A DNA stretch of 64,000 nt from Acidimicrobiia bacterium. GTDB taxonomy: Bacteria > Actinomycetota > Acidimicrobiia > Spongiisociales > ZC4RG35. The notes under the pieces were generated by a model. That model saw nothing but the letters and a program-made list of their open reading frames with translations, did no database searches and was not told where the DNA came from. Below are positions 2,771-63,001 of this stretch, piece after piece (position 1 is the stretch's first letter; each line of letters opens with the position of its first letter). The DNA lies in the NCBI GenBank assembly GCA_035462175.1, contig DATHUP010000049.1:52614-116613 (forward strand). The letters are read 5' to 3'. The position numbers and the translations under genes are program-made.

Positions 2771-3122
2771 GTTCTTCCGGTCGCTGCTGTCGGCCAATCT
2801 CTTCGTCACCGGGATACTCCTCACCCTGGCCTCGGTGGCCTTGTTCTACGGGTCGATCTACCTGTTCAACTTCACGAACCTGGGCAAGCGGCTCGGGTTC
2901 CTGGTGACCGGCTCGGCCGTGTTCGGCTGGCTCACCATCACCTCGATGTTGTTTGTGGTCTACGCCCCCCGAGGCCCCAAGCCCGACGACATCGAAGGGC
3001 TCAATGCCTTCGAGGTCAGGATCATCCCGATCACCTATCTACTCGTCTCCCTGGTGCTGTTCCTGGCGTTCCTGGTAGCCCTGCAGCAGTACGAGGAAGT
3101 GCAAGAGAAGTCGTCGGCCTAA
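2757..3122 (+). CDS. small integral membrane protein (3 predicted TM helices), possibly an accessory subunit
   Basis: ATG (MFFREFF...) overlapping the end of the cytochrome c gene; hydrophobic segments; ORF track 2727..3122. Confidence 0.4.
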   Translation: MFFREFFRSLLSANLFVTGILLTLASVALFYGSIYLFNFTNLGKRLGFLVTGSAVFGWLTITSMLFVVYAPRGPKPDDIEGLNAFEVRIIPITYLLVSLVLFLAFLVALQQYEEVQEKSSA

Positions 3123-3138
3123 TGCTCGATCCGACTAC

Positions 3139-3172
3139 CGACTACCGACCACTGAACTACTACGGCAGCCGC
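3139..3172. terminator. putative bidirectional stem-loop terminator between convergent genes
   Basis: actacggcagccgcc-taaa-ggcggcttccgtagt forms a ~14-bp GC-rich stem with one mismatch, between the + strand gene ending at 3122 and rex ending at 3173. Confidence 0.4.
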
Positions 3173-3790
3173 CTAAAGGCGGCTTCCGTAGTAACTCAGC
3201 ACCTGTAGCTCCATCGACAAGTCGACCTGTCTGACTGAGACGGTGTCGGGGACGTTGACCCTTACCGGGGCGAAGTTGAGGATGGAGTGGATGCCGTGCT
3301 CTACCAGCCGCTCCGCCACCTGTTGCGCGGCGACCGCGGGCACGGCGAGGATGGCTATCTCGAATACGTTGGAGCCACAGTCGCCGTCGATGTCGTCGAG
3401 ATGCTGGATGACGACGCTGCCCACCTTGGTACCGATCTTTCGAACGTCGGTGTCGTACAGGGCGACGACATCGAACCCGCGGCGGCCCAGTCCCGCGTAA
3501 TTGGCCAGGGCGCGACCCAGGTTTCCCGTCCCGACGATGGCCACCCGCTTTCTCTCGGCGATGCCCAACTCCTGACGGATCCGCGCCTTCAGCTCACCGA
3601 CCGAGTATCCGATGCCGCGGACTCCGTGGAAGTCGAGGTGGGAGAGGTCGCGCCGCACATTGGCGGCATTGGCCCCTGCCGCCGCGGCAAGCTCCTCGGA
3701 GCTGACCACGTCCCGGATCGCCTCGAGGTCCTCCAGCAACCGAAGGTAGCGGGGGAGCCGGACCACGGTGGCCTTTGGGATTCCGTTCAC
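3173..3790 (-). CDS. rex: redox-sensing transcriptional repressor Rex
   Basis: N-terminal winged helix (VVRLPRYLRLL) plus Rossmann GTGNLGRAL NADH-binding motif; GTG start. Confidence 0.85.
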   Translation of the reverse strand: MNGIPKATVVRLPRYLRLLEDLEAIRDVVSSEELAAAAGANAANVRRDLSHLDFHGVRGIGYSVGELKARIRQELGIAERKRVAIVGTGNLGRALANYAGLGRRGFDVVALYDTDVRKIGTKVGSVVIQHLDDIDGDCGSNVFEIAILAVPAVAAQQVAERLVEHGIHSILNFAPVRVNVPDTVSVRQVDLSMELQVLSYYGSRL

Positions 3791-12784: not shown

Positions 12785-14134
12785 ATGACCGACGACACCG
12801 AGACCACTCAGACCCTCGACGTCTGGGTGGCTGGGACCGAAGAGCCCGAGCTCGCCGCTACTGACGAGGGTGCCCAGGAGATCTCGACCGACGAGTCCGA
12901 GACCCGTCTCGACGAGCAGTTCGGCAGGGTGGTCGAGGACGACTACGTCTTCGACGACGACGCCGACCCCGAGGAGCGGATGATCCTCAACATGGGCCCG
13001 CAGCATCCGTCGACGCACGGCGTGCTCCGCCTCCAGATCGAGTTGGAGGGTGAGATCATCCGCCGCACCAAGCCGATCATCGGATACCTCCACACCGGGA
13101 TGGAGAAGACCGGCGAGCAGCTCACGTTCGCCCAGGGCGGGACCAACGTCACCCGCATGGACTACCTGTCCCCGTTCCACAACGAGCTGGCGTACTCGCT
13201 GGCGGTGGAGCGGCTGCTCGGGATCGAGGTCCCGCACCGGGCCGCCGCCATCCGGGTGCTCATGACCGAGTTGAACCGCTGCTCGTCGCATTTGGTGGCG
13301 CTGGCCACCAACGGGATGGACATCGGTGCGGTCTCGATGATGATCTACGGGTTTCGGGAGCGGGAGCAGATCCTGGCCTTCTTCGAGAAGACCACCGGCC
13401 TCCGCATGAATCACAACTACATCCGGCCCGGCGGTGTCGCCGCCGATCTCCCTCCGGGCTGGAAGGACGACGTCGCCGCCATCATCGAGGAGCTGCCGAA
13501 GCGGATCCAGCAGTACGACGACCTTCTCGAGAACAACCCGATCTGGGTGGGTCGGACCAGGGGAGTGGGTGTGATCTCCGCCGAAGAGGCGATCTCCTAT
13601 GGCATCACCGGGCCGACCCTGCGCTCGACCGGTGTCGACTGGGACCTGCGAAAGGCGTTCCCCTACAGCGGGATCGAGCAGTACGAGTTCGACGTGCCGC
13701 TAGGAGAGCATGGCGATGTCTACGACCGCTACCGGATCAGGGTGGTGGAGATCGAGCAATCGCTGCGCATCGTCGAGCAGGTGATGGACACCATGCCGAA
13801 GGGCGACTTCCGGGTCGACGACCGCAAGGTGACCCCCCCGCCCCGGGGGCGGATCGACGAGTCGATGGAGGCGCTGATCCATCATTTCAAGCTGTTCACC
13901 GAGGGCTACAAGGTGCCGCCGGGAGAAACCTATGTCGCCGTGGAGTCGCCGCGGGGCGAGCTGGGCTGTTATCTCGCCTCCGACGGAGGCGCCATTCCAT
14001 ATCGGATGCACATCAGGGCTCCGTCGTTCTCCAACCTGCAGGCTCTCCCCATCACCATGGCCGACTCCCTCATGGCCGACACCGTCGCCACCATCGCCTC
14101 CCTCGACCCGGTGATGGGCGACGTCGACCGGTAA
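12785..14134 (+). CDS. nuoD: NADH-quinone oxidoreductase subunit D (with ~55-aa acidic N-terminal extension)
   Basis: 49-kDa subunit motifs (LNMGPQHPSTHGVLRL, RAPSFSNL). Confidence 0.9.
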   Translation: MTDDTETTQTLDVWVAGTEEPELAATDEGAQEISTDESETRLDEQFGRVVEDDYVFDDDADPEERMILNMGPQHPSTHGVLRLQIELEGEIIRRTKPIIGYLHTGMEKTGEQLTFAQGGTNVTRMDYLSPFHNELAYSLAVERLLGIEVPHRAAAIRVLMTELNRCSSHLVALATNGMDIGAVSMMIYGFREREQILAFFEKTTGLRMNHNYIRPGGVAADLPPGWKDDVAAIIEELPKRIQQYDDLLENNPIWVGRTRGVGVISAEEAISYGITGPTLRSTGVDWDLRKAFPYSGIEQYEFDVPLGEHGDVYDRYRIRVVEIEQSLRIVEQVMDTMPKGDFRVDDRKVTPPPRGRIDESMEALIHHFKLFTEGYKVPPGETYVAVESPRGELGCYLASDGGAIPYRMHIRAPSFSNLQALPITMADSLMADTVATIASLDPVMGDVDR

Positions 14135-14143
14135 AGAACCGCG

Positions 14144-14190
14144 TTCCTAATGCAGGGCGTCACGTATACGTGACGCGGTGCATAAAGAAT
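14144..14190. repeat. copy A of a ~47-bp nested palindromic element (TTCCTAATGCA-N3-CGTCACG-N4-CGTGACG-N3-TGCAT[TA]A[GA]GAA)
   Basis: Outer 11-bp and inner 7-8-bp inverted repeats; reverse complement of copy C (about 90% identity); lies between the nuoD stop and the stop of the minus-strand cassette. Confidence 0.75.
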
Positions 14191-15176
14191 CAACCGAACG
14201 GCGGCGTAGTTGTGGTCGGCACCGGATTGTCGTCGACCGGCGTCTCGTCCTCTTCGATCGTTGGAAACCCCGATGACGGAGGAGGTACCTCGGTCAGTCG
14301 GCCGTACTCGTCGTAGCGGGAGAGCTGGAGCGGATAGAGATTGGGGATGATCCGCCCGAACCTGTCTCGGTCAAAGGACACGGTGCCACTGTCGTATTGG
14401 ATCACACCGGCGCCCGGGTCGAACTCGACCTCCTCGTAGACATATGGCGGGAGGGATAGAAGTGGACGGCCGGCCTGATCGAACAGCAGCACGTCGACTG
14501 GATTCCCATCGAGGTCGTAGGCGTAGATGTTCTCCACCGGTGTGCCATCGGCGGTGACCAGACGGTCGAACCAGAATTCGACCGAAGGCTCCACGTAGTG
14601 GCTGGGGGTGTTCACCAACGTCGCCATCAGTCCGAGGCCTGCAGCAAGGGAGAACACGAACGAACCTGCCGTCGGAAGATGGATCCCGGGTCGGGTCAGG
14701 TCGCGCCACTTGTCGAGCCAGATGGAGAGCCACGTGGCGCCGGCGACCAGGGCCAGGCCAGTCAGGGAGCTGGAACCAAACCGGGGGATGGGAAAGTGGG
14801 TGAACGGGTCTTGGTAGTAGAGCAAAGCCCATGCGGTCACCAGCATCCACCCACGAATCCATATCCAGAACGGCCTGATCGAGGGCCAGTGGATGATCTC
14901 GCTCAACCGGATCGCCCATGCGTCGGCGCGTGCCCGCGCTGTCACCAGCAACCCGGGCGCGGGATGATCAATGTCCAGCCCCGCACTCTGCCGGAACTCG
15001 GCCACGAACGATTCCGGTGACCCGAGGATGGTCTCGACCTCCTCGTCCCCGAGCTCGGCGAGATGTGCTTCCAGATCCTGCACCACCTCCTCGCGATCCT
15101 CGGCGGCGAGGTCGGCGAGACCCTCGGCGACCCGCGCGAGATAGGCGGCTTTCGACGGTGACAACGTGATGCTCAT
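14190..15176 (-). CDS. PadR-associated membrane protein with N-terminal HAAS/DUF1700-like helical domain
   Basis: N-terminus (AAYLARVAEGLADLAAEDREEVVQDLEAHLAELGDEE...SPESFVAEF) matches the DUF1700/HAAS pattern found downstream of PadR regulators; about 4 TM helices; overlaps the padR stop. Confidence 0.5.
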   Translation of the reverse strand: MSITLSPSKAAYLARVAEGLADLAAEDREEVVQDLEAHLAELGDEEVETILGSPESFVAEFRQSAGLDIDHPAPGLLVTARARADAWAIRLSEIIHWPSIRPFWIWIRGWMLVTAWALLYYQDPFTHFPIPRFGSSSLTGLALVAGATWLSIWLDKWRDLTRPGIHLPTAGSFVFSLAAGLGLMATLVNTPSHYVEPSVEFWFDRLVTADGTPVENIYAYDLDGNPVDVLLFDQAGRPLLSLPPYVYEEVEFDPGAGVIQYDSGTVSFDRDRFGRIIPNLYPLQLSRYDEYGRLTEVPPPSSGFPTIEEDETPVDDNPVPTTTTPPFG

Positions 15177-15499
15177 TCCTCTTCTCCCTCGAGCAGTTGG
15201 TTCATGACCCCGGCGAAGTCGTGCCAGGTCTTCTTGGAGCGGTCCAACAGGTCGGTGCCGGCTCGGTTCAGCCCGTAGTACTTCCGCGCCGGGCCTTCCT
15301 CGGACGGAACCACCTCGGAGGTGAGGTATCCACCCCCGAAGAGGCGACGCAAGGTCCCGTAGACCGAAGCGTCTCCGACCTCGTCGAAGCCACTGACCCG
15401 AAGTTGTCGCACCAAGTCGTAGCCATAGGTGCGGCCCCGACTCAGAACGGCGAGCACCGCCGTGTCGAGCACCCCCTTGAGCAGCTGGGTCGAGTCCAT
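15173..15499 (-). CDS. PadR-family transcriptional regulator
   Basis: Winged HTH (LLKGVLDTAVLAVLSRGRTYGYDLVRQL...YGTLRRL) and PadR C-terminal helix; probable start at the MDSTQLLKG methionine (the ORF track extends to 15601). Confidence 0.75.
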   Translation of the reverse strand: MDSTQLLKGVLDTAVLAVLSRGRTYGYDLVRQLRVSGFDEVGDASVYGTLRRLFGGGYLTSEVVPSEEGPARKYYGLNRAGTDLLDRSKKTWHDFAGVMNQLLEGEEE

Positions 15500-15565
15500 T
15501 CGCACTCCAATCGTCGCTAGTGCGACTTGCACACTACCACGCAATACGGAGTAGTGATCGGTCAA

Positions 15566-15611
15566 TTCCGAATGCAGCCCGTCACGGATACGCGACGCCA
15601 TGCATTAGGAA
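15566..15611. promoter_or_regulatory. copy B of the nested palindromic element; candidate PadR autoregulatory operator
   Basis: TTCCGAATGCA-gcc-CGTCACG-gata-CGCGACG-cca-TGCATTAGGAA, about 65 nt upstream of the probable padR start and just downstream of the amidohydrolase stop. Confidence 0.5.
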
Positions 15612-15615
15612 TCGT

Positions 15616-17079
15616 CTACGGCCAGCCCTGGTGGTGGAGCCTGAACTCACGCACCTCCTCGCTCGTCGACGGTCCCCAGGTCATGGTGGGGACGAGGTGC
15701 TCGACCCGGGCCGCCTCGAGCTCGTCGACGGTGAATCCCACCGGCTCGGTGATGGGGTCGATCTGGTAGAGGCTGGCCGCGTTCCAGCCCAGGATCTTCG
15801 CTTTCATCCCCCGCGTGAGCTCGGGGTATCCATGGCGCTCGCGCAGGTCCGCCGGGATTTGGAAGGCGCGCAGGGCGTCGATCTGACCCTGGGGCGACCC
15901 GTAGAAGATGGAGTCGGTGCCCCAGAGCAGGTTGTCCTCCCCGACCGCCACCAACAGTTTGCCCAGGGCATGTGCCGCCTCGTCGGGACGACGGAGTAGG
16001 TGCCACCACGTCGACCCGATCTCGGCATACACGTTCTGCCCAGGGCCGACCCCGGCTCGTCGCAGCGAGTCGACCAGCCGGTTCACCCCGAGATGGGCGG
16101 TGTCCTCGGTGAAGGGACCCTCCCTCTGCGCCACCTCGAACCCGGAGTGGTAGACGACGAACCGTACATCGGGATGGTTTTTCGCCGCGGGGCCGACGTC
16201 CTCGGGCGACCCAAACCGGGTCTGGTCGGAGAGCCCCTTGTGCACGAACAGGATGGGCGCCCCGGATCCCGCCACTGCATCGAGGAACCGGTCTCCCACC
16301 GCGGGGAGGTCGGGGTCGTGGTCGTCGAGCCACCAGTGGATCCCCGAGGGGAAGTGGGTGAAGGTCTTCCAGCCGGAGATGGTGTTCTCGGCGACGGTCC
16401 GCTGCATCTCTTCCACCACCGATTCGATCGGGGCGGTCTGAGGAAGCGCAAGTGCGTTGACCAATACCCGTTCGTCGCCAGACAGCCCCTGCACCATCTG
16501 CCGGGTCTCCTCCATCACCTCGGGCGAGAGAGGGCTGCCTTCTGGGTGGATCGGCAGTCCGGAGAGGGCGACCATCGTGGTATCCGATCTGATGAAGATC
16601 TCCTCGAGGAAGTGGTTCATCGAGAAACACGCCCGGGGATCGTCCTCGTCCTCGCAGCGTGCCTGGGGGAAGTTCCGACCCCAGAACCAGTCGCCCCGGG
16701 TCGAGGGGTCCAGGTCGTATTCGAGGAGATGGCCCTGGACGTCGAAGACGAACTGAGTCGGGCCCAAGACGGCGCGGGCAGCGTCGGTGTCATGGCGGGA
16801 GGCCGGGTCGAACGGGTACCAGAGCCCGGGTTGGAGGCCGAGGGCGGAGGCCATGACGGAATCGATGGCAGCAAGTGAGACGGCGACGGCGGAGGCCGAG
16901 CGGAGGAACTCGCGTCGGCTCAGACCGGTGCGTCGGATGGCCTCGTCGATGCCGGCGCGGGCGGTCTTCTCCATCTCGCGGCGGACCGGTGTTATCTGCT
17001 CCGGCTCGTATTCGCCATTCGAGCACTGCCCGAAGGCGATGGGAAGGCCCGGGTCCTCGTCGCGCCACGATCGGGACAT
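15616..17079 (-). CDS. amidohydrolase-family (TIM-barrel metal-dependent hydrolase) protein with TAT signal
   Basis: Twin-arginine motif (SRREFLRSASAVAVSLAA) followed by amidohydrolase_2-like motifs (FVHKGL, VVYHSGFE, WGTDS). Confidence 0.65.
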   Translation of the reverse strand: MSRSWRDEDPGLPIAFGQCSNGEYEPEQITPVRREMEKTARAGIDEAIRRTGLSRREFLRSASAVAVSLAAIDSVMASALGLQPGLWYPFDPASRHDTDAARAVLGPTQFVFDVQGHLLEYDLDPSTRGDWFWGRNFPQARCEDEDDPRACFSMNHFLEEIFIRSDTTMVALSGLPIHPEGSPLSPEVMEETRQMVQGLSGDERVLVNALALPQTAPIESVVEEMQRTVAENTISGWKTFTHFPSGIHWWLDDHDPDLPAVGDRFLDAVAGSGAPILFVHKGLSDQTRFGSPEDVGPAAKNHPDVRFVVYHSGFEVAQREGPFTEDTAHLGVNRLVDSLRRAGVGPGQNVYAEIGSTWWHLLRRPDEAAHALGKLLVAVGEDNLLWGTDSIFYGSPQGQIDALRAFQIPADLRERHGYPELTRGMKAKILGWNAASLYQIDPITEPVGFTVDELEAARVEHLVPTMTWGPSTSEEVREFRLHHQGWP

Positions 17080-17119
17080 CGATGTTGATTCTGCCCCACA
17101 ACCGTGAGGTATGGGTCCG

Positions 17120-17166
17120 ATTCTTTATGCAGTCCGTCACGCATACGTGACGCCCTGCATTAGGAA
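17120..17166. promoter_or_regulatory. copy C of the nested palindromic element; candidate operator in the divergent amidohydrolase / nuoE control region
   Basis: gATTCTTTATGCA-gtc-CGTCACG-cata-CGTGACG-ccc-TGCATTAGGAA; 41-87 nt upstream of the amidohydrolase start and 60 nt upstream of the nuoE start. Confidence 0.5.
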
Positions 17167-17225
17167 CGCGGTGTGACCCCCCGGGTTTCGCTCGGGATAG
17201 GGGTGCTACCTAATCTCCGGCCTCG

Positions 17226-17849
17226 ATGAGTCAATGGTCGGAGGCCACTCAGGAGCGCGCCCGGCAGATCATGGCGCGTTATCCGCAGAAGCGGTCGGCG
17301 GTCATGCCGTTGCTCTATCTGGCCATGGCCGAGGAGGGCCATCTCAGCGACGAGGGGATGGAGGAAGTCGGCCGCTGGGTCGGCATCACCCCGGCCCAGG
17401 TGCAGGCAGTGGCCACCTTCTACACGATGTACAAGCGGAGACCGACCGGGAGGTACCTGATCTCGTGTTGCACCTCGATATCCTGCATGCTGCTTGGTGC
17501 TGACGACGTTCTTCACGGGGTCGAGGACGAGTCGGGCGTGCCCCACGGCGAGACCGATCCCGACGGGCTCTTCTCGGTGGAGCACGTCGAGTGCATCGGC
17601 GCCTGCGGGGGAGCGCCTGCGGTCCAGGTCAACTACGAGCTGATCGAGGGAGTGACCCCCGAGAAGGCCAGGGAGCTGGTGAGGTGGCTCGGCAAAGCCC
17701 GCCCCGAAGTGGTCAACGGCGACGAGATGCAGGAGCTGTTCGGCGGGGTTCGCAGCTTCGATTGGGCGATCAGGGAGGAAGACGGGGCGGTTGGCCCCTA
17801 TCCGGCCTTCCAGCCGCTGGGCACGGTGGGAAGCGAGGGCGGCGCTTGA
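17226..17849 (+). CDS. nuoE: NADH-quinone oxidoreductase subunit E
   Basis: 24-kDa subunit, 2Fe-2S motifs (CCTSISC...CIGAC). Confidence 0.9.
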   Translation: MSQWSEATQERARQIMARYPQKRSAVMPLLYLAMAEEGHLSDEGMEEVGRWVGITPAQVQAVATFYTMYKRRPTGRYLISCCTSISCMLLGADDVLHGVEDESGVPHGETDPDGLFSVEHVECIGACGGAPAVQVNYELIEGVTPEKARELVRWLGKARPEVVNGDEMQELFGGVRSFDWAIREEDGAVGPYPAFQPLGTVGSEGGA

Positions 17850-43706: not shown

Positions 43707-44738
43707 ATGACCATCGAAGACTCGATGTCGCTCGCTGCGCACGCCGGTCTGCACTATGTCGCCGAGGAGACCCCTGGTCTGCGGCGGATCCGGCGGGGAC
43801 GGGGGTTCTCCTACGTCGGCCCCGATGGCGGGACGGTCAACGGCGAGGTCCGGAAGCGGATCGAATTGCTAGTGATACCGCCGGCCTGGGAAGGGGTTTG
43901 GATCTCACCCGATTCGTCGGGGCACATCCTGGCCACCGGCTACGACAGTGCCGGGAGGAAGCAGTACATCTATCACCCGCTCTGGGAGCAGGTCAGGGAC
44001 GAGGCGAAGTTCGAGCGGATGGGCGAGTTCGGGCGCCGCCTGGCCAGGTTGCGTCGCCGGATGGACTCCGATCTGAGACGACCCGGGCTGTCCCGGGAGA
44101 AAGTGACGGCTCTTGCCGTCTCGGTCCTGGATCGGACGCTCATCCGGGTGGGCAACCGGAAGTACGCCGACGAGAACGAGGCCTACGGGCTGACCACACT
44201 CACCTGTGACCATGTCGAGGTGGACGGCTTCCACGTCCATCTCGAGTTCGCCGGCAAGGGTGGCGCCGATCACCAGTTGGTGTTCCGCGACCGCCGGCTC
44301 GCTTCGTTGATTGCCCGCTGCCAGGAGCTGTCCGGACAGACCCTCTTCGGGTATGAGACGGGCCAGGGTGTGAGCCCGATCACGTCGACCGACGTCAACG
44401 GCTACCTGTCCGAGGTGATGTCGGGCCCGTTCACAGCCAAGGACTTCCGGACCTGGGGGGCGAGCACGGCCGTGGCCGAGGACCTGGCCACCGGCCCCGA
44501 CAACGAAGACGCCGAGGTCCGGTTGTTGCGGGCAATCGACGCGACGGCCGAGAAATTGGGCAACACACGGGAGGTCTGCCGCAGCTCCTATCTGCATCCA
44601 ATCATCCCCGAGGCTTTTCGGGCCGGGTCGCTGCAGAAGACATGGGCCCGATCCCGTCGCGGCCTGTGGCTGGGGCGGGCCGAATCGGCGGTGAACCGGC
44701 TGGTAGCGGAACGAGTCGGGTCGAACGGTTCTGTTTGA
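43707..44738 (+). CDS. DNA topoisomerase IB (poxvirus/eukaryote-type Topo I)
   Basis: TopIB catalytic region (FRTWGAS...RSSYLHP with active-site Tyr region), N-terminal DNA-binding domain; ORF track starts 43545. Confidence 0.75.
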   Translation: MTIEDSMSLAAHAGLHYVAEETPGLRRIRRGRGFSYVGPDGGTVNGEVRKRIELLVIPPAWEGVWISPDSSGHILATGYDSAGRKQYIYHPLWEQVRDEAKFERMGEFGRRLARLRRRMDSDLRRPGLSREKVTALAVSVLDRTLIRVGNRKYADENEAYGLTTLTCDHVEVDGFHVHLEFAGKGGADHQLVFRDRRLASLIARCQELSGQTLFGYETGQGVSPITSTDVNGYLSEVMSGPFTAKDFRTWGASTAVAEDLATGPDNEDAEVRLLRAIDATAEKLGNTREVCRSSYLHPIIPEAFRAGSLQKTWARSRRGLWLGRAESAVNRLVAERVGSNGSV

Positions 44739-53750: not shown

Positions 53751-54116
53751 ATGACCCCATACTTCGAGAGTTACCTGACAGTCGGCGCATTCGCCGTTCT
53801 CGGGGCAGTCCTGGTGATGATGATGCTCGGCCTGGCCACGGTGCTGCGACCGACCAACCCCACGGCCACCAAGATGCTCACCTACGAGTGCGGGGTTGAC
53901 CCTGTCGGATCGGGGTGGAGCCAGAGCTACGTTCGCTACTACGTCTACGGGCTGCTATTTGTCATCTTCGACGTGGAGGCGGTCTTCATCTTTCCCTGGG
54001 CGATAGTGCTCGACCAGTTGGGCACGTTTGGCCTGGTGGAGATGTTCGTGTTCATCGCCATCCTCCTCCTTGGGCTGGTCTACGCGGTCCGCAAAGGAGT
54101 CCTGCGGTGGGAGTAG
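53751..54116 (+). CDS. nuoA: Nuo-like complex subunit A (cluster 2)
   Basis: YECGVDP / [12 protein letters not shown] motifs; 121 aa. Confidence 0.85.
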
Positions 54117-54604
54117 TCCAGAAGTTCGGGGCCCCGAAGCCGGTGACTTGGCTTCTCAACTGGTCCCGGAAGTACTCCCTCTGGCTGTTCCAGTTCGGTC
54201 TGGCCTGCTGTGCCATCGAGCTGATGGCAGCGTCTGGCCCCCGGTTCGACTTCATGCGCTTCGGGATCATCCCTCTTCCCGCCTCGCCCCGTCAGGCCGA
54301 TCTGATGGTCGTCGCCGGGACGGTCACCGACAAGATGGCTCCGGCCATTCGTCGTCTCTACGACCAGATGCCCGATCCCAAGTACGTCATCTCGATGGGG
54401 TCGTGCGCCAACTGCGGCGGCCCATATTGGGATTCCTACTCGGTGACCAAGGGAGTCGACCAGGTGATCCCGGTGGACGTGTACGTCCCGGGCTGTCCGC
54501 CTCGGCCCGAGGCATTGATGGACGGGATCGTGCTCCTCCAGAAGAAGATCCAGGGCGAAGACATCAAAGAGAAATGGAACCGGCGTGACCTCGAGCCCGT
54601 CTGA
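54107..54604 (+). CDS. nuoB: Nuo-like complex subunit B (cluster 2)
   Basis: [12 protein letters not shown]...GSCANCGG...PGCPPRP; GTG start with AAAGGAG RBS. Confidence 0.85.
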
Positions 54605-55229
54605 GACCGAGACGGCCGCCGTCCACCCGCTCCAGGAGTACGCCGATCGGGTTGCTGCCGCGGTAGGGGGCGATGGGACGGTGACCTTCGACACGGTCAA
54701 GATCAGGGTTCCCCTCGAGCGATGGGTCGATGCCCTGACCACGGCACGCGACGAGCTCGATCTCGTCTTCTTCTCTTGGCTCTCTGCAGTCGACTGGTCC
54801 TCCGAGGTCGAGGTGGGCGACCCTTTTCCCGAGCCGGTCGAAGATCGTCTCGAGCTCCTCGCCACCGTGGCCGATGTCAGCGAGGGGCGACGGGTGATCT
54901 TCTCCACCGATCTGGACAAGGAAACGCCTTCTGCACCCACCCTGATCGACGTGTACGCCGGGGCCAACTGGCACGAACGGGAAGCCCACGAGATGTTCGG
55001 GATCCATTTCGATGGTCATCCCAACCTGATCCACCTCTACTTGCCCGACCAGTTCCTGGGCAACCCGCTGCGAAAGAGCTATCCCCTTCTCAGCCGTGAG
55101 GTCAAGCCCTGGCCCGGCACGGTCGACGTCGAGGCGATGCCGGGCAGTGACGAAGGAACAGAGGACGAAGGAGCAGAGGGAGACGGGGCCGAGGCGGACG
55201 GGCCCTCCGAGGAGAACCCGGAGGCATGA
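54585..55229 (+). CDS. nuoC: Nuo-like complex subunit C (cluster 2), acidic C-terminal tail
   Basis: [18 protein letters not shown] motif. Confidence 0.85.
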
Positions 55230-55230
55230 C

Positions 55231-56421
55231 ATGGTGCTAGACCAGGATCTGGTCCGCCACCTCTCCGAGTCTTCGGTGTCGGTGGAGCTCGACACCGAGG
55301 ACATGACCCTCAACATCGGGCCCCAGCACCCGTCGACTCACGGCGTTCTCCGACTCAAGGCACGGGTGGACGGCGAACGCGCCTTCGACGTGCAACCGGT
55401 CATCGGCTACATGCATCGCGGCTACGAGAAGCTGTCGGAGGCGAGGACCTACCCCCAGATCACCACCCTCGTCAACCGCATCGACTGGGTGTCGGGTTAC
55501 GCCAACGAGATCCCCTTCATCGTCGCCGCCGAGAAGCTGCTCGGCGTCGAGGTGCCGGAGCGAGCCCAATACATCCGGCTCATCCTCACCGAAATGGCCC
55601 GGATCTCCTCCCACCTGGTCTTCATGGCGTCCTACCCGCTGGAGCTGGGGGCGGCCACCCCGCTCTTCTTCGCCCTGAGGGAGCGGGAGCGTGTGCTCGA
55701 CCTGCTCGAGGGTGTGACCGGTGGCAGGTTCCACCCGAACTTCAACCGGATCGGCGGGGTCAAGCCGGCGTACGGGTCGGGCTCGGCGACCCGGAAGGTG
55801 ATCCAAGACCTCCCTGCCGGGTTCCTCGCCGAGACCAGGGATGCGATGGACAAGGTGGTGGAGGCGGTGGACGAGCTGAATCAGCTGGTTGCCGACAACG
55901 AGATCATCGTGGCCCGGACCAAGGGGGTCGGGGTCCTGCCCCCCGAGGTGGCTGCCGCATACGGGGTCTCCGGGCCCAACCTCCGTGCCTCCGGAGTCGG
56001 GTTCGATCTGCGCAAGGTGGAGGACTACCTCCCCTACCACCTGTTCGACTTCGAGATCCCGACCGGGGAGAACGGCGACTGCTGGGATCGATGGCATGTC
56101 CGCCTCCTCGAGATTCGCCAGTCGGTGCGCATCGTCCAGCAGGCGATCGACGGCATCCCCTCCGGCCCGCTCCAGGCCAAGGTGCCCAAGGTGATCAAGG
56201 TGCCTCAGGGAGAGACCTATGTCCGGGCGGAGAACCCGAAGGGGGAGATGGGCTACTACCTGGTCTCCAACGGCAACCAGGGCCCCTACCGGCTGAAGAT
56301 CCGCTCCGCCAGCTTCTCCAACATCTCGATCCTTCCCTGGATCCTGGAGGGTGTCCTGGTCCCCGACATCATCGCCATCATGGGAAGTCTGGACTTCGTG
56401 TTGGGGGACGTGGACCGATGA
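55231..56421 (+). CDS. nuoD: Nuo-like complex subunit D (cluster 2)
   Basis: NIGPQHPSTHGVLRL...RSASFSN motifs; no N-terminal acidic extension, unlike cluster 1 NuoD. Confidence 0.9.
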   Translation: MVLDQDLVRHLSESSVSVELDTEDMTLNIGPQHPSTHGVLRLKARVDGERAFDVQPVIGYMHRGYEKLSEARTYPQITTLVNRIDWVSGYANEIPFIVAAEKLLGVEVPERAQYIRLILTEMARISSHLVFMASYPLELGAATPLFFALRERERVLDLLEGVTGGRFHPNFNRIGGVKPAYGSGSATRKVIQDLPAGFLAETRDAMDKVVEAVDELNQLVADNEIIVARTKGVGVLPPEVAAAYGVSGPNLRASGVGFDLRKVEDYLPYHLFDFEIPTGENGDCWDRWHVRLLEIRQSVRIVQQAIDGIPSGPLQAKVPKVIKVPQGETYVRAENPKGEMGYYLVSNGNQGPYRLKIRSASFSNISILPWILEGVLVPDIIAIMGSLDFVLGDVDR

Positions 56422-56439
56422 GTGCTCGCTTCGCTGATT

Positions 56440-56518
56440 TGGCTACGAGCTACGAGCCACGAGCAACGGGCCAGAGCGCGATTCTGGCTCGTCGCTCGTT
56501 GCCCGTTGCTCATCGCGT
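56440..56518. repeat. intercistronic heptamer-periodic hairpin repeat, copy R2
   Basis: gctacgagctacgagccacgagcaacgg / GCCAGAGCGCGattCTGGC apex / gctcgtcgctcgttgcccgttgctcatcgc; between nuoD2 and nuoH2. Confidence 0.8.
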
Positions 56519-56533
56519 CAGGAAGGACACCCA

Positions 56534-57538
56534 GTGTCCTTCCTGACCGAGCTGTTCTCCAACTTCTGGGTCTCTCTTGCCGGGAAGCTGCTCATCGTCG
56601 CTCTCATGATCCCGCTCGTGGGCATGGTCATCGGGTTCGCCGAGATGAAGCTCTCGGCCAAGATGCAGGCACGGGTCGGCCCCTACTTCGCCGGGGGACG
56701 CTGGGGCTGGGCACAGCTCATCGCCGACGGGGTCAAGTTCTTCCAGAAAGAGGATCTGATCCCCACCGAGGCGGATCGCCCGGTGTTCAAGCTGGCGCCT
56801 GTGCTGGTGCTGGTGAGCACGGTCGCCCTTCTGGTGGTGATCCCCTTTGGCCCGGACCTGATCTTCCGCGATCTCTCGGTCGGCATCTTCTACGCCCTCG
56901 CTATCTCCTCGCTGAGCACTGTCGGGATCCTGATGGCCGGCTGGTCGTCGGGCAACAAGTACTCGCTGATGGGTGGGCTCAGGGCCGCCGGACAGCTGAT
57001 CGCCTACGAGCTGCCCCTGGTGCTGGCCGTCGTGGGCGCGGTCATGCTGGCCGGGACCATGAGCATGTCCGGGATCGTCGAGGCCCAGATCGAGGCCGGG
57101 TACCCCTTTGTGGTACTCCAGTTCCTCGGCTTCGGGATCTTCCTGATCGCCGCCCTCGCCGAGCTGAGTCGGATCCCCTTCGACATGCCCATCGCCGAGT
57201 CGGAGCTGGTGATGGGATATCTGACCGAGTACTCGGGATTCCGTTTCCTGTTCTTCTTCCTGGCCGAGTTCGCCAATATGTTCACCCTGTCGGCGATCGC
57301 CGTGACCCTTTTCCTCGGCGGCTACTGGCTTCCCGGGATCCCCGAGGACGTCCTCGCCTATGCCGGTCCGGTGATCCTCATCGCCAAGACCTTCCTCCTC
57401 GTCTTTGTCATGATCTGGTTCCGCTGGACCTTCCCCCGGTTCCGAGAAGACCAGTTGCAGAGCATGGCCTGGAAGTGGTTGATCCCGATCGCCCTGGCCA
57501 ACATCCTCCTCACCGGAGCCTTCAAGGTGTACCTATGA
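56534..57538 (+). CDS. nuoH: Nuo-like complex subunit H (cluster 2)
   Basis: ND1-like; GTG start embedded in the palindrome gtcaggaaggacac-cca-gtgtccttcctgac. Confidence 0.9.
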   Translation: MSFLTELFSNFWVSLAGKLLIVALMIPLVGMVIGFAEMKLSAKMQARVGPYFAGGRWGWAQLIADGVKFFQKEDLIPTEADRPVFKLAPVLVLVSTVALLVVIPFGPDLIFRDLSVGIFYALAISSLSTVGILMAGWSSGNKYSLMGGLRAAGQLIAYELPLVLAVVGAVMLAGTMSMSGIVEAQIEAGYPFVVLQFLGFGIFLIAALAELSRIPFDMPIAESELVMGYLTEYSGFRFLFFFLAEFANMFTLSAIAVTLFLGGYWLPGIPEDVLAYAGPVILIAKTFLLVFVMIWFRWTFPRFREDQLQSMAWKWLIPIALANILLTGAFKVYL

Positions 57539-58035
57539 CCAGCGCCACCGACCGACGTGTGCTTCCCGGCGTGGGGATGCTCAAGGGCCTCTGGGTGACC
57601 ATCTACACCATGTTCCGCACCATCTTCCGTCCCGGGAAGTACCTCGCCACGATCAACTACCCGGTGGTCAAGGAGACCCCGGTGCCCCGGGCGCGGGGCG
57701 TCATCGCCCTGGACCAGGAGGCGTGCACGGTGTGCATGCTCTGTGCCCGCCAGTGCCCCGACTGGTGCATCTACATCGAAGGGCACAAAGAGGAGAAGGA
57801 GCCGGACAAGCCCGGGGGCAGGGTCAAGGTGCGGAACACGCTCGACCGTTTCGACATCGACTACGCGCTCTGCATGTACTGCGGGATCTGTGTCGAGGTG
57901 TGCCCGTTCGACGCCCTGTTCTGGTCACCGGAGTACGAGTACTCCGAGACGCAGATGGGCGACATGTTGCACGACATGGACCGTCTCCAGGACTGGCTCG
58001 CCACCGTCCCCGACAATCCGGAGCTGGAGAAATGA
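57535..58035 (+). CDS. nuoI: Nuo-like complex subunit I (cluster 2)
   Basis: Two 4Fe-4S motifs (CTVCMLCARQCP, CMYCGICVEVCP). Confidence 0.85.
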   Translation: MTSATDRRVLPGVGMLKGLWVTIYTMFRTIFRPGKYLATINYPVVKETPVPRARGVIALDQEACTVCMLCARQCPDWCIYIEGHKEEKEPDKPGGRVKVRNTLDRFDIDYALCMYCGICVEVCPFDALFWSPEYEYSETQMGDMLHDMDRLQDWLATVPDNPELEK

Positions 58036-58039
58036 GAGC

Positions 58040-58113
58040 TCGGCTTCGCCTCGCCGCTGCGAGCTACGAGCTTCGAGCTACGAGTTGCTCTGGCTCGTTG
58101 CTCGTTGCTCGTT
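58040..58113. repeat. intercistronic heptamer-periodic hairpin repeat, copy R3
   Basis: gagctacgagcttcgagctacgag / ttgctctg / gctcgttgctcgttgctcgttgctcatggc; between nuoI2 and nuoJ2. Confidence 0.8.
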
Positions 58114-58129
58114 GCTCATGGCGCCCGGA

Positions 58130-58690
58130 GGGTGGATCGTGAGTTTCGGCGACTGGGTGTCCGAGCCGGTCAACTGGGTGTTTCTCGTCGTCGGGGCCCT
58201 GGTGCTGGTTTCCGCGTTCCGGGTGGTCACCGCTAAGAACGTGGTGCACGCCGCCCTGTTCCTGGTTGCCGCTCTGGCCGGGACCGCAGTGCTCTTCCTC
58301 ATGCTCTCCGCCGAGTTCGTTGCCTGGGTCCTGGTGTTGGTCTACATCGGCGCGGTGATCGTCCTGTTCCTGTTCGGGATAATGATCACCCGGGCCCCCA
58401 CCGGTCGTGACGTGGGCCTCGACGTGGAGAAGCGACTGTGGGCCGGGATCCTGTCCCTAGCCACCTTCGTGCTCCTCTCCTGGGCCTCGATCGACGCTTT
58501 CGGATCGACCCGGATCGAAGAGGTGGGAGAGGCCACCTCGACCGAGGTCCTCGGGCTGGCCCTGTTGGGTCGATTCGTCATCCCGTTCGAGGTGGTCTCC
58601 TTTGTTCTCCTCGCGGCCCTGATCGGGGGGATAACCATCGCCCGCCGCGATCTCACTCCCCTCGAGGAAGAGCAGAGGAGCTCGGTATGA
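58130..58690 (+). CDS. nuoJ: Nuo-like complex subunit J (cluster 2)
   Basis: ND6-like; GTG start 7 nt after GGAGGG (the alternative ATG at 58109 lies inside the repeat and has no RBS). Confidence 0.75.
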   Translation, partial: GWIVSFGDWVSEPVNWVFLVVGALVLVSAFRVVTAKNVVHAALFLVAALAGTAVLFLMLSAEFVAWVLVLVYIGAVIVLFLFGIMITRAPTGRDVGLDVEKRLWAGILSLATFVLLSWASIDAFGSTRIEEVGEATSTEVLGLALLGRFVIPFEVVSFVLLAALIGGITIARRDLTPLEEEQRSSV

Positions 58691-58770
58691 GAGCCATGAG
58701 CCACGAGCTACGAGCGACGAGCCGGAGCGCGTTGCTGGCTCATTGCCCGTCGCTCGTTGCACGTCGCGCA
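58691..58770. repeat. intercistronic heptamer-periodic hairpin repeat, copy R4
   Basis: gagccatgagccacgagctacgagcgacgagc / GCCGGAGCGCGttgCTGGC apex / tcattgcccgtcgctcgttgcacgtcgc; between nuoJ2 and nuoK2. Confidence 0.8.
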
Positions 58771-58790
58771 TCGTTCGCCGGAGGTGAACG

Positions 58791-59096
58791 ATGCTTCTGA
58801 ATCAGTTTCTGATTCTCGCGGCGGCAATGTTCTCGCTTGGGATCTACGGGCTGTTGGTCCGGCGCAACATCGTGCTCATCCTGCTCTCGGTCGAGTTGAT
58901 GCTGGCCGCGGTGAACATCAACCTCATCGCCTTCGAAGCGGTGCTGCGCAGCCCTGATGCGATCGGCCAGGTGTTCGCCATATTCGTGATCACCGTTGCC
59001 GCCGCCGAGGTGGGCATCGGTCTCGCCATCGTCCTGATGATCTTCCGCAACCGGAAGTCGGCCAACGTCGACGAGCTCCACCTGATGAGATGGTGA
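58791..59096 (+). CDS. nuoK: Nuo-like complex subunit K (cluster 2)
   Basis: ND4L-like, 101 aa; start codon inside the hairpin gcatcgttc-gccggaggt-gaacgatgc. Confidence 0.85.
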   Translation: MLLNQFLILAAAMFSLGIYGLLVRRNIVLILLSVELMLAAVNINLIAFEAVLRSPDAIGQVFAIFVITVAAAEVGIGLAIVLMIFRNRKSANVDELHLMRW

Positions 59097-59109
59097 GAGC
59101 GTCGCTCCG

Positions 59110-59195
59110 CTCCGCAGCTACGAGCTATGAGCTTCGAGCTCTGAGCCAGAGCGCGTCTTCGGCTCGTTGCTCGTTGCTCGTTGCCCGTTGCCCGG
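59110..59195. repeat. intercistronic heptamer-periodic hairpin repeat, copy R5
   Basis: gcagctacgagctatgagcttcgagctctgagcc / AGAGCGCG apex / ggctcgttgctcgttgctcgttgcccgttgccc; between nuoK2 and nuoL2. Confidence 0.8.
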
Positions 59196-59205
59196 AGGTC
59201 ACGAA

Positions 59206-61233: not shown

Positions 61234-61248
61234 GAGAGGCAGAGAGCG

Positions 61249-62871: not shown

Positions 62872-62877
62872 TGGCTG

Positions 62878-62958
62878 GCAAGCGAGCTACGAGCTACGAG
62901 CTTCGAGCTACGAGTCGGAACGGTCTGGCCCGTTGCCCATTGCTCGTTGCTCGTCGCC
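62878..62958. repeat. intercistronic heptamer-periodic hairpin repeat, copy R6
   Basis: gcgagctacgagctacgagcttcgagctacgag / tcggaacggtct / ggcccgttgcccattgctcgttgctcgtcgcctcg; between nuoM2 and nuoN2. Confidence 0.8.
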
Positions 62959-63001
62959 TCGAGGGTTGCCGACGGGCAAAGTCGGCCGGCAAGGAAAAAC
63001 A

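Follow-up and report, generated by a model that had tools for sequence, protein, structure and literature searches.

Judged by the features that they share, the closest analogues of the palindromes described here are the REP elements of Enterobacteria and Pseudomonas and the TRIT motif of Mycobacterium. REP sequences, which also occur as BIMEs and REPINs, are short imperfect extragenic palindromes of 20–40 nt in which the hairpin has a GTAG-type tetranucleotide at its 5′ base, and their hairpins are insertion sites for IS1397. A genome with REP sequences has tens to hundreds of them, together with a cognate RAYT (Y1/HUH transposase) gene around which copies of the repeat usually lie. Regulatory MITEs, such as the Correia elements of Neisseria, are another class of small dispersed repeat and are able to act as terminators or promoters. 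The TRIT ("Tuberculosis Rho-independent terminator") motif comprises 147 palindromic copies in M. tuberculosis, mostly bidirectional, that lie within a very narrow range around the stop codon, may overlap the coding sequence at its end, and were reported only in Mycobacterium; as sequence is conserved as well as structure, a trans-acting factor was suspected (Gardner et al., 2011, RNIE; PMC3152330). Since predicted terminators, including TRIT, overlap only 2–4% of the 3′ ends mapped by Term-seq in M. tuberculosis (10.1101/2022.06.01.494293), a role in termination is unproven for this kind of element.

We analyzed three nested palindromes in a window of 64 kb, which is the whole stretch of Acidimicrobiia DNA under study. 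All lie between the two halves of a split nuo operon, as follows:

nuoD (Complex1_49kDa), 12785–14134, plus strand: final gene in the nuoABCD half of this operon.
Copy A, 14138–14189, plus strand: ACCGCG 5′ flank (14138–14143) and 46-nt nested palindrome (14144–14189); profile HMM score 63.2 bits, E = 5e-18.
HAAS gene, 14190–15176, minus strand: membrane protein with an N-terminal HAAS domain, partner of PadR.
padR, 15173–15499, minus strand: PadR-family wHTH regulator of 108 aa.
Inverted-repeat block, 15517–15556, no strand assigned: CTAGTG-N9-CACTAC-N13-GTAGTG, between copy B and padR.
Copy B, 15566–15611, minus strand: palindrome; profile HMM score 48.4 bits.
Amidohydrolase gene, 15616–17079, minus strand: Amidohydro_2 protein with a twin-arginine-like SRREFLRSA motif.
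Copy C, 17121–17172, minus strand: 46-nt palindrome (17121–17166) and CGCGGT flank (17167–17172); profile HMM score 61.8 bits.
Conserved block upstream of nuoE, 17184–17218, plus strand: GGTTTCGCT...TACCTAATCTCC.
nuoE (2Fe-2S thioredoxin-like), 17226–17849, plus strand: first gene of the nuoE-N half.

The three copies were found, to within 1 nt, where an initial annotation had placed them, and their gene context is as it described: copy A between the nuoD stop (14134) and the HAAS-gene stop (14190), copy B upstream of padR, 66 nt from its start (15499), and copy C in the divergent gap between the starts of the amidohydrolase gene (17079) and nuoE (17226). A 34-nt degenerate pattern, allowing ≤3 mismatches, matches only these 3 sites in the 64 kb (0.00 expected from 100 shuffles). 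A profile HMM built from 111 members of the palindrome family also recovers only copies A, B, and C in the window and matches nothing in another 14 kb of the same contig, and all three copies fall within 3 kb of the ~78 kb scanned. In each copy, both strands fold into a hairpin of three tiers (−22 to −27 kcal/mol, z = −3.0 to −4.2). The pair of concentric inverted repeats that had been described is present in the consensus, but each individual copy has one imperfect outer arm (TGCATAAAGAA in A, TTCCGAATGCA in B, and TTCTTTATGCA in C). The palindrome of copy A (14144–14189) reads TTCCTAATGCAGGGCGTCACGTATACGTGACGCGGTGCATAAAGAA, and the inner arm of copy B is CGCGACG. Copies A and C, which had been called reverse complements, are inverted relative to each other and 93% complementary over 54 nt, the ACCGCG flank included.

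How widely is the motif distributed? Its dispersal, the test proposed in the initial annotation, identifies the palindromes as a repeat element, as the degenerate motif is present in more than 101 stretches in public genomes among the matches listed, nearly all of them Acidimicrobiia MAGs. With the strict pattern, again among the matches listed, four MAGs contain at least 20, 16, 16, and 10 loci, respectively. The family unit consists of an imperfect palindrome of 46 nt and a conserved 5′ flank, with the consensus (A)CCGCG-TTCCTAATGCAGGGCGTCACG-yATr-CGTGACGcccTGCAT-variable, and positions beyond the search pattern are also conserved (e.g., TTCCTAA in 86–111 of 112 copies). One arm is near consensus and the other is always imperfect, such that both arms are perfect in none of the 112 copies (8.6 expected, P = 1.3e-4). 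The copies are mostly single, the genes that adjoin them are housekeeping genes, and in 29 pairs of orthologous loci from different MAGs, with flanks that are 69–94% identical, the repeat is kept at the same site. An Rfam search gave no match at the gathering score and none at E ≤ 1, and searches for tRNA and tmRNA found none. With no match in Rfam and no paper found on such repeats in Acidimicrobiia, both this family and a sister family described below are apparently undescribed.

PadR proteins bind palindromes, and copy B is located upstream of padR and copy C upstream of the amidohydrolase/nuoE pair. The palindromes had been proposed to form an operator set. On this reading, the PadR of the cassette would control padR-HAAS, amidohydrolase, and/or nuoE. 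This reading is already largely refuted by the distribution of the motif, and we give it almost no credence. The motif occurs at >100 unrelated loci, mostly at the 3′ ends of housekeeping genes, and no PadR homologue was found at any of these ~100 loci; conversely, it is wholly absent from relatives L115, L118, and L119, in which padR-HAAS-amidohydrolase is present, and relative L114 lacks copy C. The span of 46 nt, with 40+ informative positions, also far exceeds the binding site of a wHTH dimer. Moreover, L114, L115, L118, and L119 all have, upstream of padR, another conserved inverted repeat, CACTAC-N13-GTAGTG. The block at 15517–15556 that contains it is retained in relatives without copy B and would be a better candidate for the PadR operator and promoter than the palindromes.

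The position of the repeats relative to genes is narrowly defined. Gene positions in the public loci were assigned with our own codon-bias gene caller, validated only on the window from 9 to 23 kb, and by these assignments none of 112 copies lies within a gene. Convergent, tandem, and divergent contexts contain 44, 48, and 12 copies, respectively, compared with 67, 166, and 86 in the background (chi-square p = 3.8e-11 for convergent enrichment), and the median distance from a copy is 9 nt to a flanking stop versus 62 nt to a flanking start. Of 96 consensus arms, which carry the CCGCG flank, 72 face a stop, 61 of these 72 within 20 nt; in tandem contexts, the consensus arm faces the stop in 25 cases versus 4 in which it does not (p = 1e-4). 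This arm is usually 3–12 nt from the stop or itself supplies the stop codon, with spacing modes at −7, where the TAA of the element is the stop (14 cases), and at +5/+6. We also considered whether this TAA serves as an in-frame back-up stop, but ~14 of 47 copies with spacings of 0–17 nt are in frame, which is the chance level.

We therefore think it probable that the palindromes are dispersed extragenic repeats, specific to Acidimicrobiia lineages, that act as bidirectional gene-end hairpins. For the family as a whole, the most likely role would be that of a bidirectional 3′-end hairpin that terminates, stabilizes, or insulates transcripts. The hairpin may mark, stabilize, or terminate transcript 3′ ends and may insulate neighboring transcription units. 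In copy A, the consensus arm is 9 nt from the nuoD stop and faces it, the variable arm TGCATAAAGAA directly abuts the HAAS-gene stop (0 nt), and the context is convergent, the class most enriched in the family; this copy could stop nuoABCD transcription that would otherwise run antisense into the opposite-strand cassette. The consensus arm of copy B lies 4 nt past the amidohydrolase stop (15616–15618, minus strand) and its variable arm is directed at the padR promoter region, a tandem context with the typical orientation, and this copy may separate amidohydrolase from padR-HAAS.

Some observations weigh against a gene-end role. The consensus arm of copy C faces a start codon rather than a stop, which places this copy in the minority class (24 of 96). 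No U-tract or T-run follows the hairpin in the family consensus, and a scan for canonical terminators or promoters found nothing at the three copies. The bidirectional terminator earlier suggested for copy A would fit the stop-codon and convergent position seen throughout the family, but the U-tract expected of such a terminator is missing. The clustering of all three copies within 3 kb is also not predicted if the repeats are purely gene-end punctuation.

The resemblance to TRIT, with which the family was compared by description, extends to a sequence-conserved, mostly bidirectional palindromic hairpin, many scattered copies within the same phylum (Actinomycetota), a narrow position at the stop codon (the −7 and +5/+6 modes, with 61 of 72 within 20 nt) that may overlap the coding sequence, and the absence of canonical U-tract logic. 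However, both the sequence and the class (Acidimicrobiia) are different, at least two Acidimicrobiia families with shared termini replace each other at the same site, and one arm is systematically imperfect. Like intrinsic terminators, the repeats are GC-rich hairpins just downstream of stop codons and are symmetric between convergent genes, but they lack a U-tract and consist of one conserved sequence at many genes instead of idiosyncratic hairpins. With REP, BIME, and REPIN elements, they share the form of short imperfect extragenic palindromes at many loci (at least 10–20 in each of four MAGs), proximity to stop codons and location between convergent genes, the lack of a target-site duplication, long-term vertical persistence at orthologous sites, and a hairpin loop that is a target for other small elements. 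They differ from REP sequences in that the unit is 46 nt rather than 20–40 nt, the conserved flank is CCGCG with no GTAG 5′ tetranucleotide, most copies are single instead of being clustered as in BIMEs, and no RAYT gene was found in 1.3 Mb of loci.

The amidohydrolase gene is found between nuoD and nuoE in many relatives. Among relatives, the insert at this junction is made up of the amidohydrolase alone, of padR-HAAS alone, or of both, and an empty site was found in L125/L126, in which the nuoD stop is followed by 52 nt and nuoE. The block at 17184–17218 is kept in relatives with and without insertions and is likely to be the nuoE promoter or leader. The nuoD|nuoE junction is an insertion hot spot within an otherwise conserved complex I operon. 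In most relatives, a second repeat family is present at the position of copy C. The two families occupy the same sites at nuoD|nuoE and have common termini (CCGCG-T[T/A]CCT.A ... A[A/G]AGAA), the apical stem of the second family shows compensatory changes, and insertions of a third small repeat occur in the apical loops of each family.

Could the cassette itself have been mobile? The initial annotation raised the possibility that copies A and C form the terminal inverted repeats of a mobilized cassette. In this view, a composite, MITE-like unit would have brought amidohydrolase-padR-HAAS into the nuo operon. The empty site, the inverted arrangement of A and C with their conserved termini outward, and the clustering of all copies on the contig at the cassette are as expected for such a unit, and an insert with only the amidohydrolase gene, seen in L108 and L122, is similarly flanked by inverted second-family copies whose termini point outward. 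Nevertheless, we consider this explanation very unlikely. Since the similarity between A and C, including the ACCGCG flank and TAAAGAA arm, equals the family consensus, these copies are not specific terminal repeats, and the family rule, by which the consensus arm points toward a stop, in this case that of nuoD, already accounts for the orientation of copy A. Single copies of the family also occur on their own, at the ends of hundreds of unrelated genes. No target-site duplication is visible at the outer borders of A and C or detectable at the family level (longest flank match 3.46 vs a permuted null of 3.48 ± 0.08). No transposase was found in or near the cassette, and its composition shows no foreign signature. 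Identities in relatives are in a similar range for the amidohydrolase (81–95%) and nuoE (83–98%), as in vertical inheritance, and the modules vary piecewise, not as one unit.

Although the repeats resemble MITEs such as the Correia elements in being small, dispersed, and intergenic with palindromic ends, they have no target-site duplication, no parent IS was seen, and there are no solo terminal repeats flanking a transposase. The one solo arm among 177 arm matches belongs to a copy split by a nested 62-nt insertion and is not an IS end. In addition, the Acidimicrobiia repeat is much shorter than a MITE, and its copies are old and orthologous rather than polymorphic. The part of the cassette idea that survives concerns the variable nuoD|nuoE region, where modules are delimited by the repeats.

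Being repeated sequences, the copies would also offer recombination sites through which modules are reshuffled at this hot spot. In L109, the order is HAAS-padR, one hybrid-looking copy, and nuoE, which looks like a B × C deletion of the amidohydrolase gene; copies B and C are direct repeats, and their recombination would be expected to give this product. In several lineages, modules end or begin at repeats, and the insertion of a third small repeat within the apical loops of the two families is a typical feature of selfish-repeat landscapes. From these observations, one could propose that the palindromes lack a dedicated cellular function and are selfish or neutral sequences that matter mainly as homology for the deletions and insertions that shape the variable nuoD|nuoE region. 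This proposal is unlikely, as orthologous copies still match the consensus between species when their flanks are down to 69–82% identity, and as stop-codon position and orientation are tightly constrained. Furthermore, in a comparison of the window with its 95%-identical relative L104, the sole divergent tract (14240–14975) is a hypervariable part of the HAAS gene and is not bounded by copy A or copy B.

If the conserved sequence is read by a protein, is it read as double-stranded DNA? An array of binding sites for a global DNA-binding or nucleoid-associated protein would be consistent with conservation of sequence and not just pairing. Sense-strand mismatches also lack the G·U bias that would point to RNA (39 vs 51, not significant), so that nothing shows selection on RNA rather than DNA. 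Such an array is nonetheless highly improbable, as the post-stop position, orientation bias, and obligatory arm asymmetry are unexpected for a symmetric double-stranded site, and the inner TCAC-N6-GTGA is the reverse of the CRP/Rex-type arrangement. Inspection revealed no supporting feature for a CRP/Rex-like site or for a mini-ORF (ATG...TGA) inside the hairpin. An attC site was also rejected, since the ends (TTCCTAA/TTAGGAA) do not fit the R″/L″-L′/R′ boxes (RYYYAAC/GTTRRRY) and the neighbors are nuo genes, with no integrase.

Returning to gene-end hairpins as the preferred explanation, the strong conservation of sequence and not merely structure suggests that a sequence-specific trans-acting factor may recognize the repeat. 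A broader version, in which Acidimicrobiia possess a stop-anchored hairpin system of several families with shared termini that is read by a dedicated trans-acting factor, is possible but doubtful. One candidate would be an undiscovered Y1/RAYT-like single-strand enzyme that inserts repeats beside CCGCG and swaps the families in register. Another would be a factor that binds the hairpin and links the end of translation to the formation of transcript 3′ ends in a lineage short of canonical terminators. The shared termini, CCGCG flank, lack of target duplication, and asymmetry fit a REP/RAYT-like single-strand mode by which the repeats could spread or be replaced. Since no such enzyme was found, this step is the most speculative: across 1.3 Mb of loci, tblastn with E. 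coli RayT gave no match better than E = 0.4 and a regular-expression search for RAYT motifs returned nothing, both weak negatives.

Our findings argue against annotating the palindromes as PadR operators or transposon ends. Pinning to the stop codon, a property of TRIT, thus extends beyond Mycobacterium to a second class of Actinomycetota, which raises the question of whether there is a common gene-end mechanism where canonical terminators are scarce. If the repeats are indeed read by a trans-acting factor, they would provide a non-mycobacterial counterpart with which the TRIT question could be tested by comparison. For the Acidimicrobiia, which are abundant but uncultured bacteria of soil, sediment, and water, the repeats are useful as markers of gene 3′ ends and of lineage, and they flag a gene-insertion hot spot inside the conserved complex I operon.

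The window carries three copies of a 46-nt nested palindrome, located by sequence inspection, among genes that lie as follows.

12785-14134, plus strand, nuoD
14144-14189, copy A
14190-15176, minus strand, HAAS-domain membrane protein gene
15173-15499, minus strand, PadR gene
15566-15611, copy B
15616-17079, minus strand, Amidohydro_2 protein gene (amidohydrolase)
17121-17166, copy C
17226-17849, plus strand, nuoE

Because of this order, nuoD(+)/HAAS-PadR-Amidohydro_2(-)/nuoE(+), nuoABCD is split from nuoE-N by a three-gene minus-strand cassette, in which HAAS-PadR is a described two-component-like signaling dyad (PMC11237479). Both the palindromes and their gene setting are as the initial annotation had placed them, the palindromes to within 1 nt. 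A 34-nt degenerate pattern, with at most three mismatches allowed, matches only A, B and C in the 64-kb window (0 expected from shuffles). On the 118,935-bp metagenome contig that the window is part of (ENA ERZ27272640 k141_368896), all three fall inside 3 kb, with no copy in the other ~75 kb readable. Copies A and C are inverted, with 93% complementarity across 54 nt, ACCGCG flank included, and in each copy one outer arm deviates from TTCCTAATGCA/TGCATTAGGAA. Folding predicts a three-tier hairpin on either strand (-22 to -27 kcal/mol, z = -3.0 to -4.2). Other strong local palindromes, at 3152-3199, 43765-43812 and 56517-56547, fall outside this family and the second family described below.

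The three copies belong to a dispersed repeat family, here called family 1. GTDB was scanned, one genome per species, for TGCANNNCGTCACNNNNNNGNGACGNNNTGCA. For this pattern we estimate ~4 chance matches across 596 Gb if composition is uniform, and the scan gave more than 101 stretches; among the matches listed, nearly all are Acidimicrobiia MAGs, four of which hold at least 20, 16, 16 and 10 loci. The 112 copies extracted for the family statistics are homologous rather than chance matches, since positions left free in the search pattern are conserved too. The outer seven bases, TTCCTAA, are present in 86-111 of the 112 and an upstream (A)CCGCG flank in 60-68%. In oriented form the consensus reads (A)CCGCG-TTCCTAATGCAGGGCGTCACG-yATr-CGTGACGcccTGCAT; the tail after it varies and comes in discrete subtypes (TAAAGAA, TTCGGTT, TAACGTT, TTGAGAA and TTAGGTT). 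Perfect agreement with the 20-nt consensus is seen for one arm in 62 of the 112 copies and for both arms in none (8.6 expected under independence, P = 1.3e-4). Mismatches recur at the same positions, in the basal stem, in a 3x3 internal loop and at the pair that closes the loop. Five matches come from MAGs labeled Acidobacteriota (L027, L033, L047, L049 and L065, numbered as public loci compared with the window), and L033 is a full member on a 500-kb contig; these could reflect horizontal transfer, mislabeling or a shared core. Family 1 has no matching Rfam family, and a full-text literature search found no paper on repeats of this kind in Acidimicrobiia.

Family 1 is a stop-codon-anchored, oriented, asymmetric and sequence-conserved hairpin repeat that favors convergent gene ends. 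Using a codon-bias gene caller written for this analysis, which reproduces the deposited calls across 9-23 kb of the window, we found none of the 112 copies inside a gene. Gene contexts are 44 convergent, 48 tandem and 12 divergent, versus 67, 166 and 86 among background gaps able to hold a copy (chi-square p = 3.8e-11). The flanking stop codon lies at a median of 9 nt and the flanking start at 62 nt. The consensus arm, the better-conserved arm beside the CCGCG flank, points towards the stop codon in 72 of 96 orientable cases (61 of these 72 within 20 nt), and in tandem contexts it is stop-proximal in 25 cases versus 4 (p = 1e-4). Stop distances have two modes: in 14 cases the TAA within TTCCTAATGCA is itself the stop codon, and the second mode places the stop 5-6 nt upstream, abutting the CCGCG flank. 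Copy A is of the convergent type typical of the family, with 9 nt between its consensus arm and the nuoD stop, and with its variable arm touching the HAAS stop; copy B is of the equally typical tandem type, its consensus arm 4 nt past the amidohydrolase stop. Copy C falls in the divergent class, which is rare, and its consensus arm faces a start codon. By inspection of translated sequences, neighbors are ordinary housekeeping genes, with alanine racemase-, GlmS-, GlmM-, ribosomal protein S9/L13- and aldehyde dehydrogenase-like products among them.

Could A, B and C be a set of PadR operators, as first proposed? The genome-wide search returned many dispersed copies, not a few near PadR genes, and none of ~100 family-1 loci encodes a relative of the window's PadR. 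Moreover, an inverted-repeat block upstream of padR, CTAGTG-N9-CACTAC-N13-GTAGTG at 15517-15556, is kept in all padR-bearing loci compared, independently of copy B, which where present sits between this block and the amidohydrolase stop; the whole cassette is present in L115, L118 and L119, where the profile HMM detects no family-1 copy. For these reasons we reject the operator reading. The 15517-15556 block is the better candidate, likely serving as operator and promoter.

Comparison of eighty metagenome loci with nuoE relatives (74-98% identity; L104-L183) shows the nuoD|nuoE junction (window 14134-17226), within the 14-subunit complex I operon, to be a hot spot for insertions in related Acidimicrobiia. 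In many lineages the two genes are contiguous or 50-230 nt apart, and the empty site that the initial annotation had advised seeking in relatives is present in L125/L126 (nuoD stop, 52 nt, nuoE). Others carry the amidohydrolase only (L108, L110, L113, L122), HAAS-PadR-amidohydrolase (the window, L104, L114, L115, L118, L119), HAAS-PadR without amidohydrolase (L109) or unrelated genes. A family-1 profile HMM matches only some of these loci:

L104, copies A, B and C
L105, copy C
L107, a degenerate copy A
L109, one copy
L114, copies A and B, without C
L131/L138, copy A

The L109 copy is flanked by padR-promoter sequence at one end and by sequence from upstream of nuoE at the other, as expected either of direct-repeat recombination between B and C or of a lineage that never acquired the amidohydrolase. 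Between the window and L104, a 95%-identical relative, the sole strongly divergent tract is 14240-14975 inside the HAAS gene (35-65% identical); its surroundings, including padR and the HAAS N-terminal domain, are 90-98% identical, and the repeats do not border it. The tract has the look of a hypervariable region of the HAAS-PadR dyad, either sensor or transmembrane, and could have diverged by recombination or diversifying selection. Just upstream of nuoE, a block GGTTTCGCT...TACCTAATCTCC (17184-17218) is kept with or without an insert after nuoD and may act within the nuo operon as an internal promoter or a leader.

In the amidohydrolase, a twin-arginine-like SRREFLRSA motif ~50 residues from the N terminus suggests export, unusual for an Amidohydro_2 enzyme. 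The contig also carries a second complex I-like operon, of the 11-subunit type (window ~53751-64000; nuoA, B, C, D, H, I, J, K, L, M and N, without nuoE/F/G), a Rex-like gene (Put_DNA-bind_N + CoA_binding; 3173-3790, minus strand, ~7.6 kb upstream of nuoA) and, upstream, cytochrome bc and cbb3-type oxidase genes (L185).

The alternative that A and C are ends of a mobilized cassette is mostly rejected. Their resemblance is not that of specific terminal repeats, since the flank and TAAAGAA arm are plain family consensus; what is left is the weaker idea of repeats that mark the boundaries of modules and may recombine them. The target-site duplication suggested as a check is missing at family level, flank matches equaling a permuted null, and we found no solo arms flanking a transposase. 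No RAYT/IS200-like gene occurs in the 1.3 Mb examined, a weak negative as the MAGs were covered only in part. In 29 pairs of loci, each pair drawn from different MAG species and sharing 69-94% identity in the flanks, the repeat occupies the same orthologous site, so that many copies must be old, although the sample is biased in that both members had to match the search pattern. Together, these comparisons argue against recent or conventional transposition.

Some form of turnover does appear to be supported, by presence/absence and family swaps at the nuo junction and by insertions of a third repeat into hairpin loops. At the copy C site, most amidohydrolase-bearing relatives have family 2, CCGC(G)-T(T/G)ACCTGAGGTACGTAGCGCCATATATGGCGCTACGGGGACAGAGAA, also written CCGC-TTACCTGAGGTACGTAGCGCCATATATGGCGCTACGGGGACAGAGAA, so this site is held by different families in register. 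Family 2 also follows the nuoD stop in L108, L122 and L134, and is found at unrelated loci in the same MAGs as family 1.

L106, 1171-1220, family 2
L108, 4363-4425 and 5915-5960, family 2
L122, 4362-4425, family 2
L134, 1612-1665, family 2
L015, L024, L052, L063 and L096, further family-2 loci

Compensatory changes are seen in the family-2 apical stem, where four pairs, or eight cells, differ on both sides, a level that 0 of 500 shuffles attained. Both families have the 5′ end CCGCKTWCCTRA, and the 3′ end AYARAGAA is common to family 2 and the TAAAGAA subtype of family 1. Still different small repeats follow the nuoD stop in further lineages. The more distant relatives L132, L135, L143, L149, L150 and L156 have tandem or repeated GACCGATGAGATCGGTTTGAAGAACGATG... 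units right after that stop, another lineage-specific gene-end repeat. The third repeat, small, rich in C and G runs and with UUCG/GAAG-loop mini-hairpins, TCTCCCCC...GGGGGGAGTACCCCGAAGGGG, is inserted exactly in the apical loop of a family-1 copy (L038) and of family-2 copies (L118, L010), and elsewhere also occurs alone.

L038, 2208-2269, third repeat
L118, ~3110-3215, third repeat
L010, ~7545, third repeat
L083, 6146, third repeat
L162, 2350, third repeat
L170, 4441 and 4596, third repeat

More speculatively, a REP/RAYT-like single-strand mechanism would fit the conserved CCGCG flank, the missing duplications, the obligatory asymmetry and the termini that families 1 and 2 have in common.

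What might family 1 do? We infer a bidirectional gene-end hairpin that would form or protect transcript 3′ ends and insulate neighboring units. In the window, copy A would prevent transcription of nuoABCD from extending antisense into the cassette, copy B would set the amidohydrolase apart from padR-HAAS, which is under its own regulation, and nuoE-N would start from the 17184-17218 block, present even without an insertion. Against termination, there is neither a U-tract after the family-1 hairpin nor a G.U bias on the sense strand, and Term-seq in M. tuberculosis showed little overlap of mapped 3′ ends with predicted terminators, including TRIT (10.1101/2022.06.01.494293). Since sequence and not just pairing is kept in old orthologous copies, a sequence-specific partner is likely, as the TRIT authors likewise inferred for their repeat (PMC3152330).

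TRIT, reported only in Mycobacterium as 147 palindromic copies, mostly bidirectional and very narrowly spread around the stop codon (PMC3152330), is the closest analogue; family 1 would work alike, but differs in sequence and host class. Like REP/REPIN, family 1 is extragenic, imperfectly palindromic, multicopy, near stops, free of duplications and persistent; unlike them, it has no GTAG foot, no usual clustering and so far no RAYT. Without duplications it does not qualify as a MITE, and without a U-tract it is no canonical terminator; the defining features of an attC site and of a PadR operator are lacking as well. Family 1 represents undescribed REP/TRIT-like gene-end palindromic repeats, and its stop-codon anchoring outside Mycobacterium, in-register family replacement and loop-targeted nested insertions are worth pursuing.
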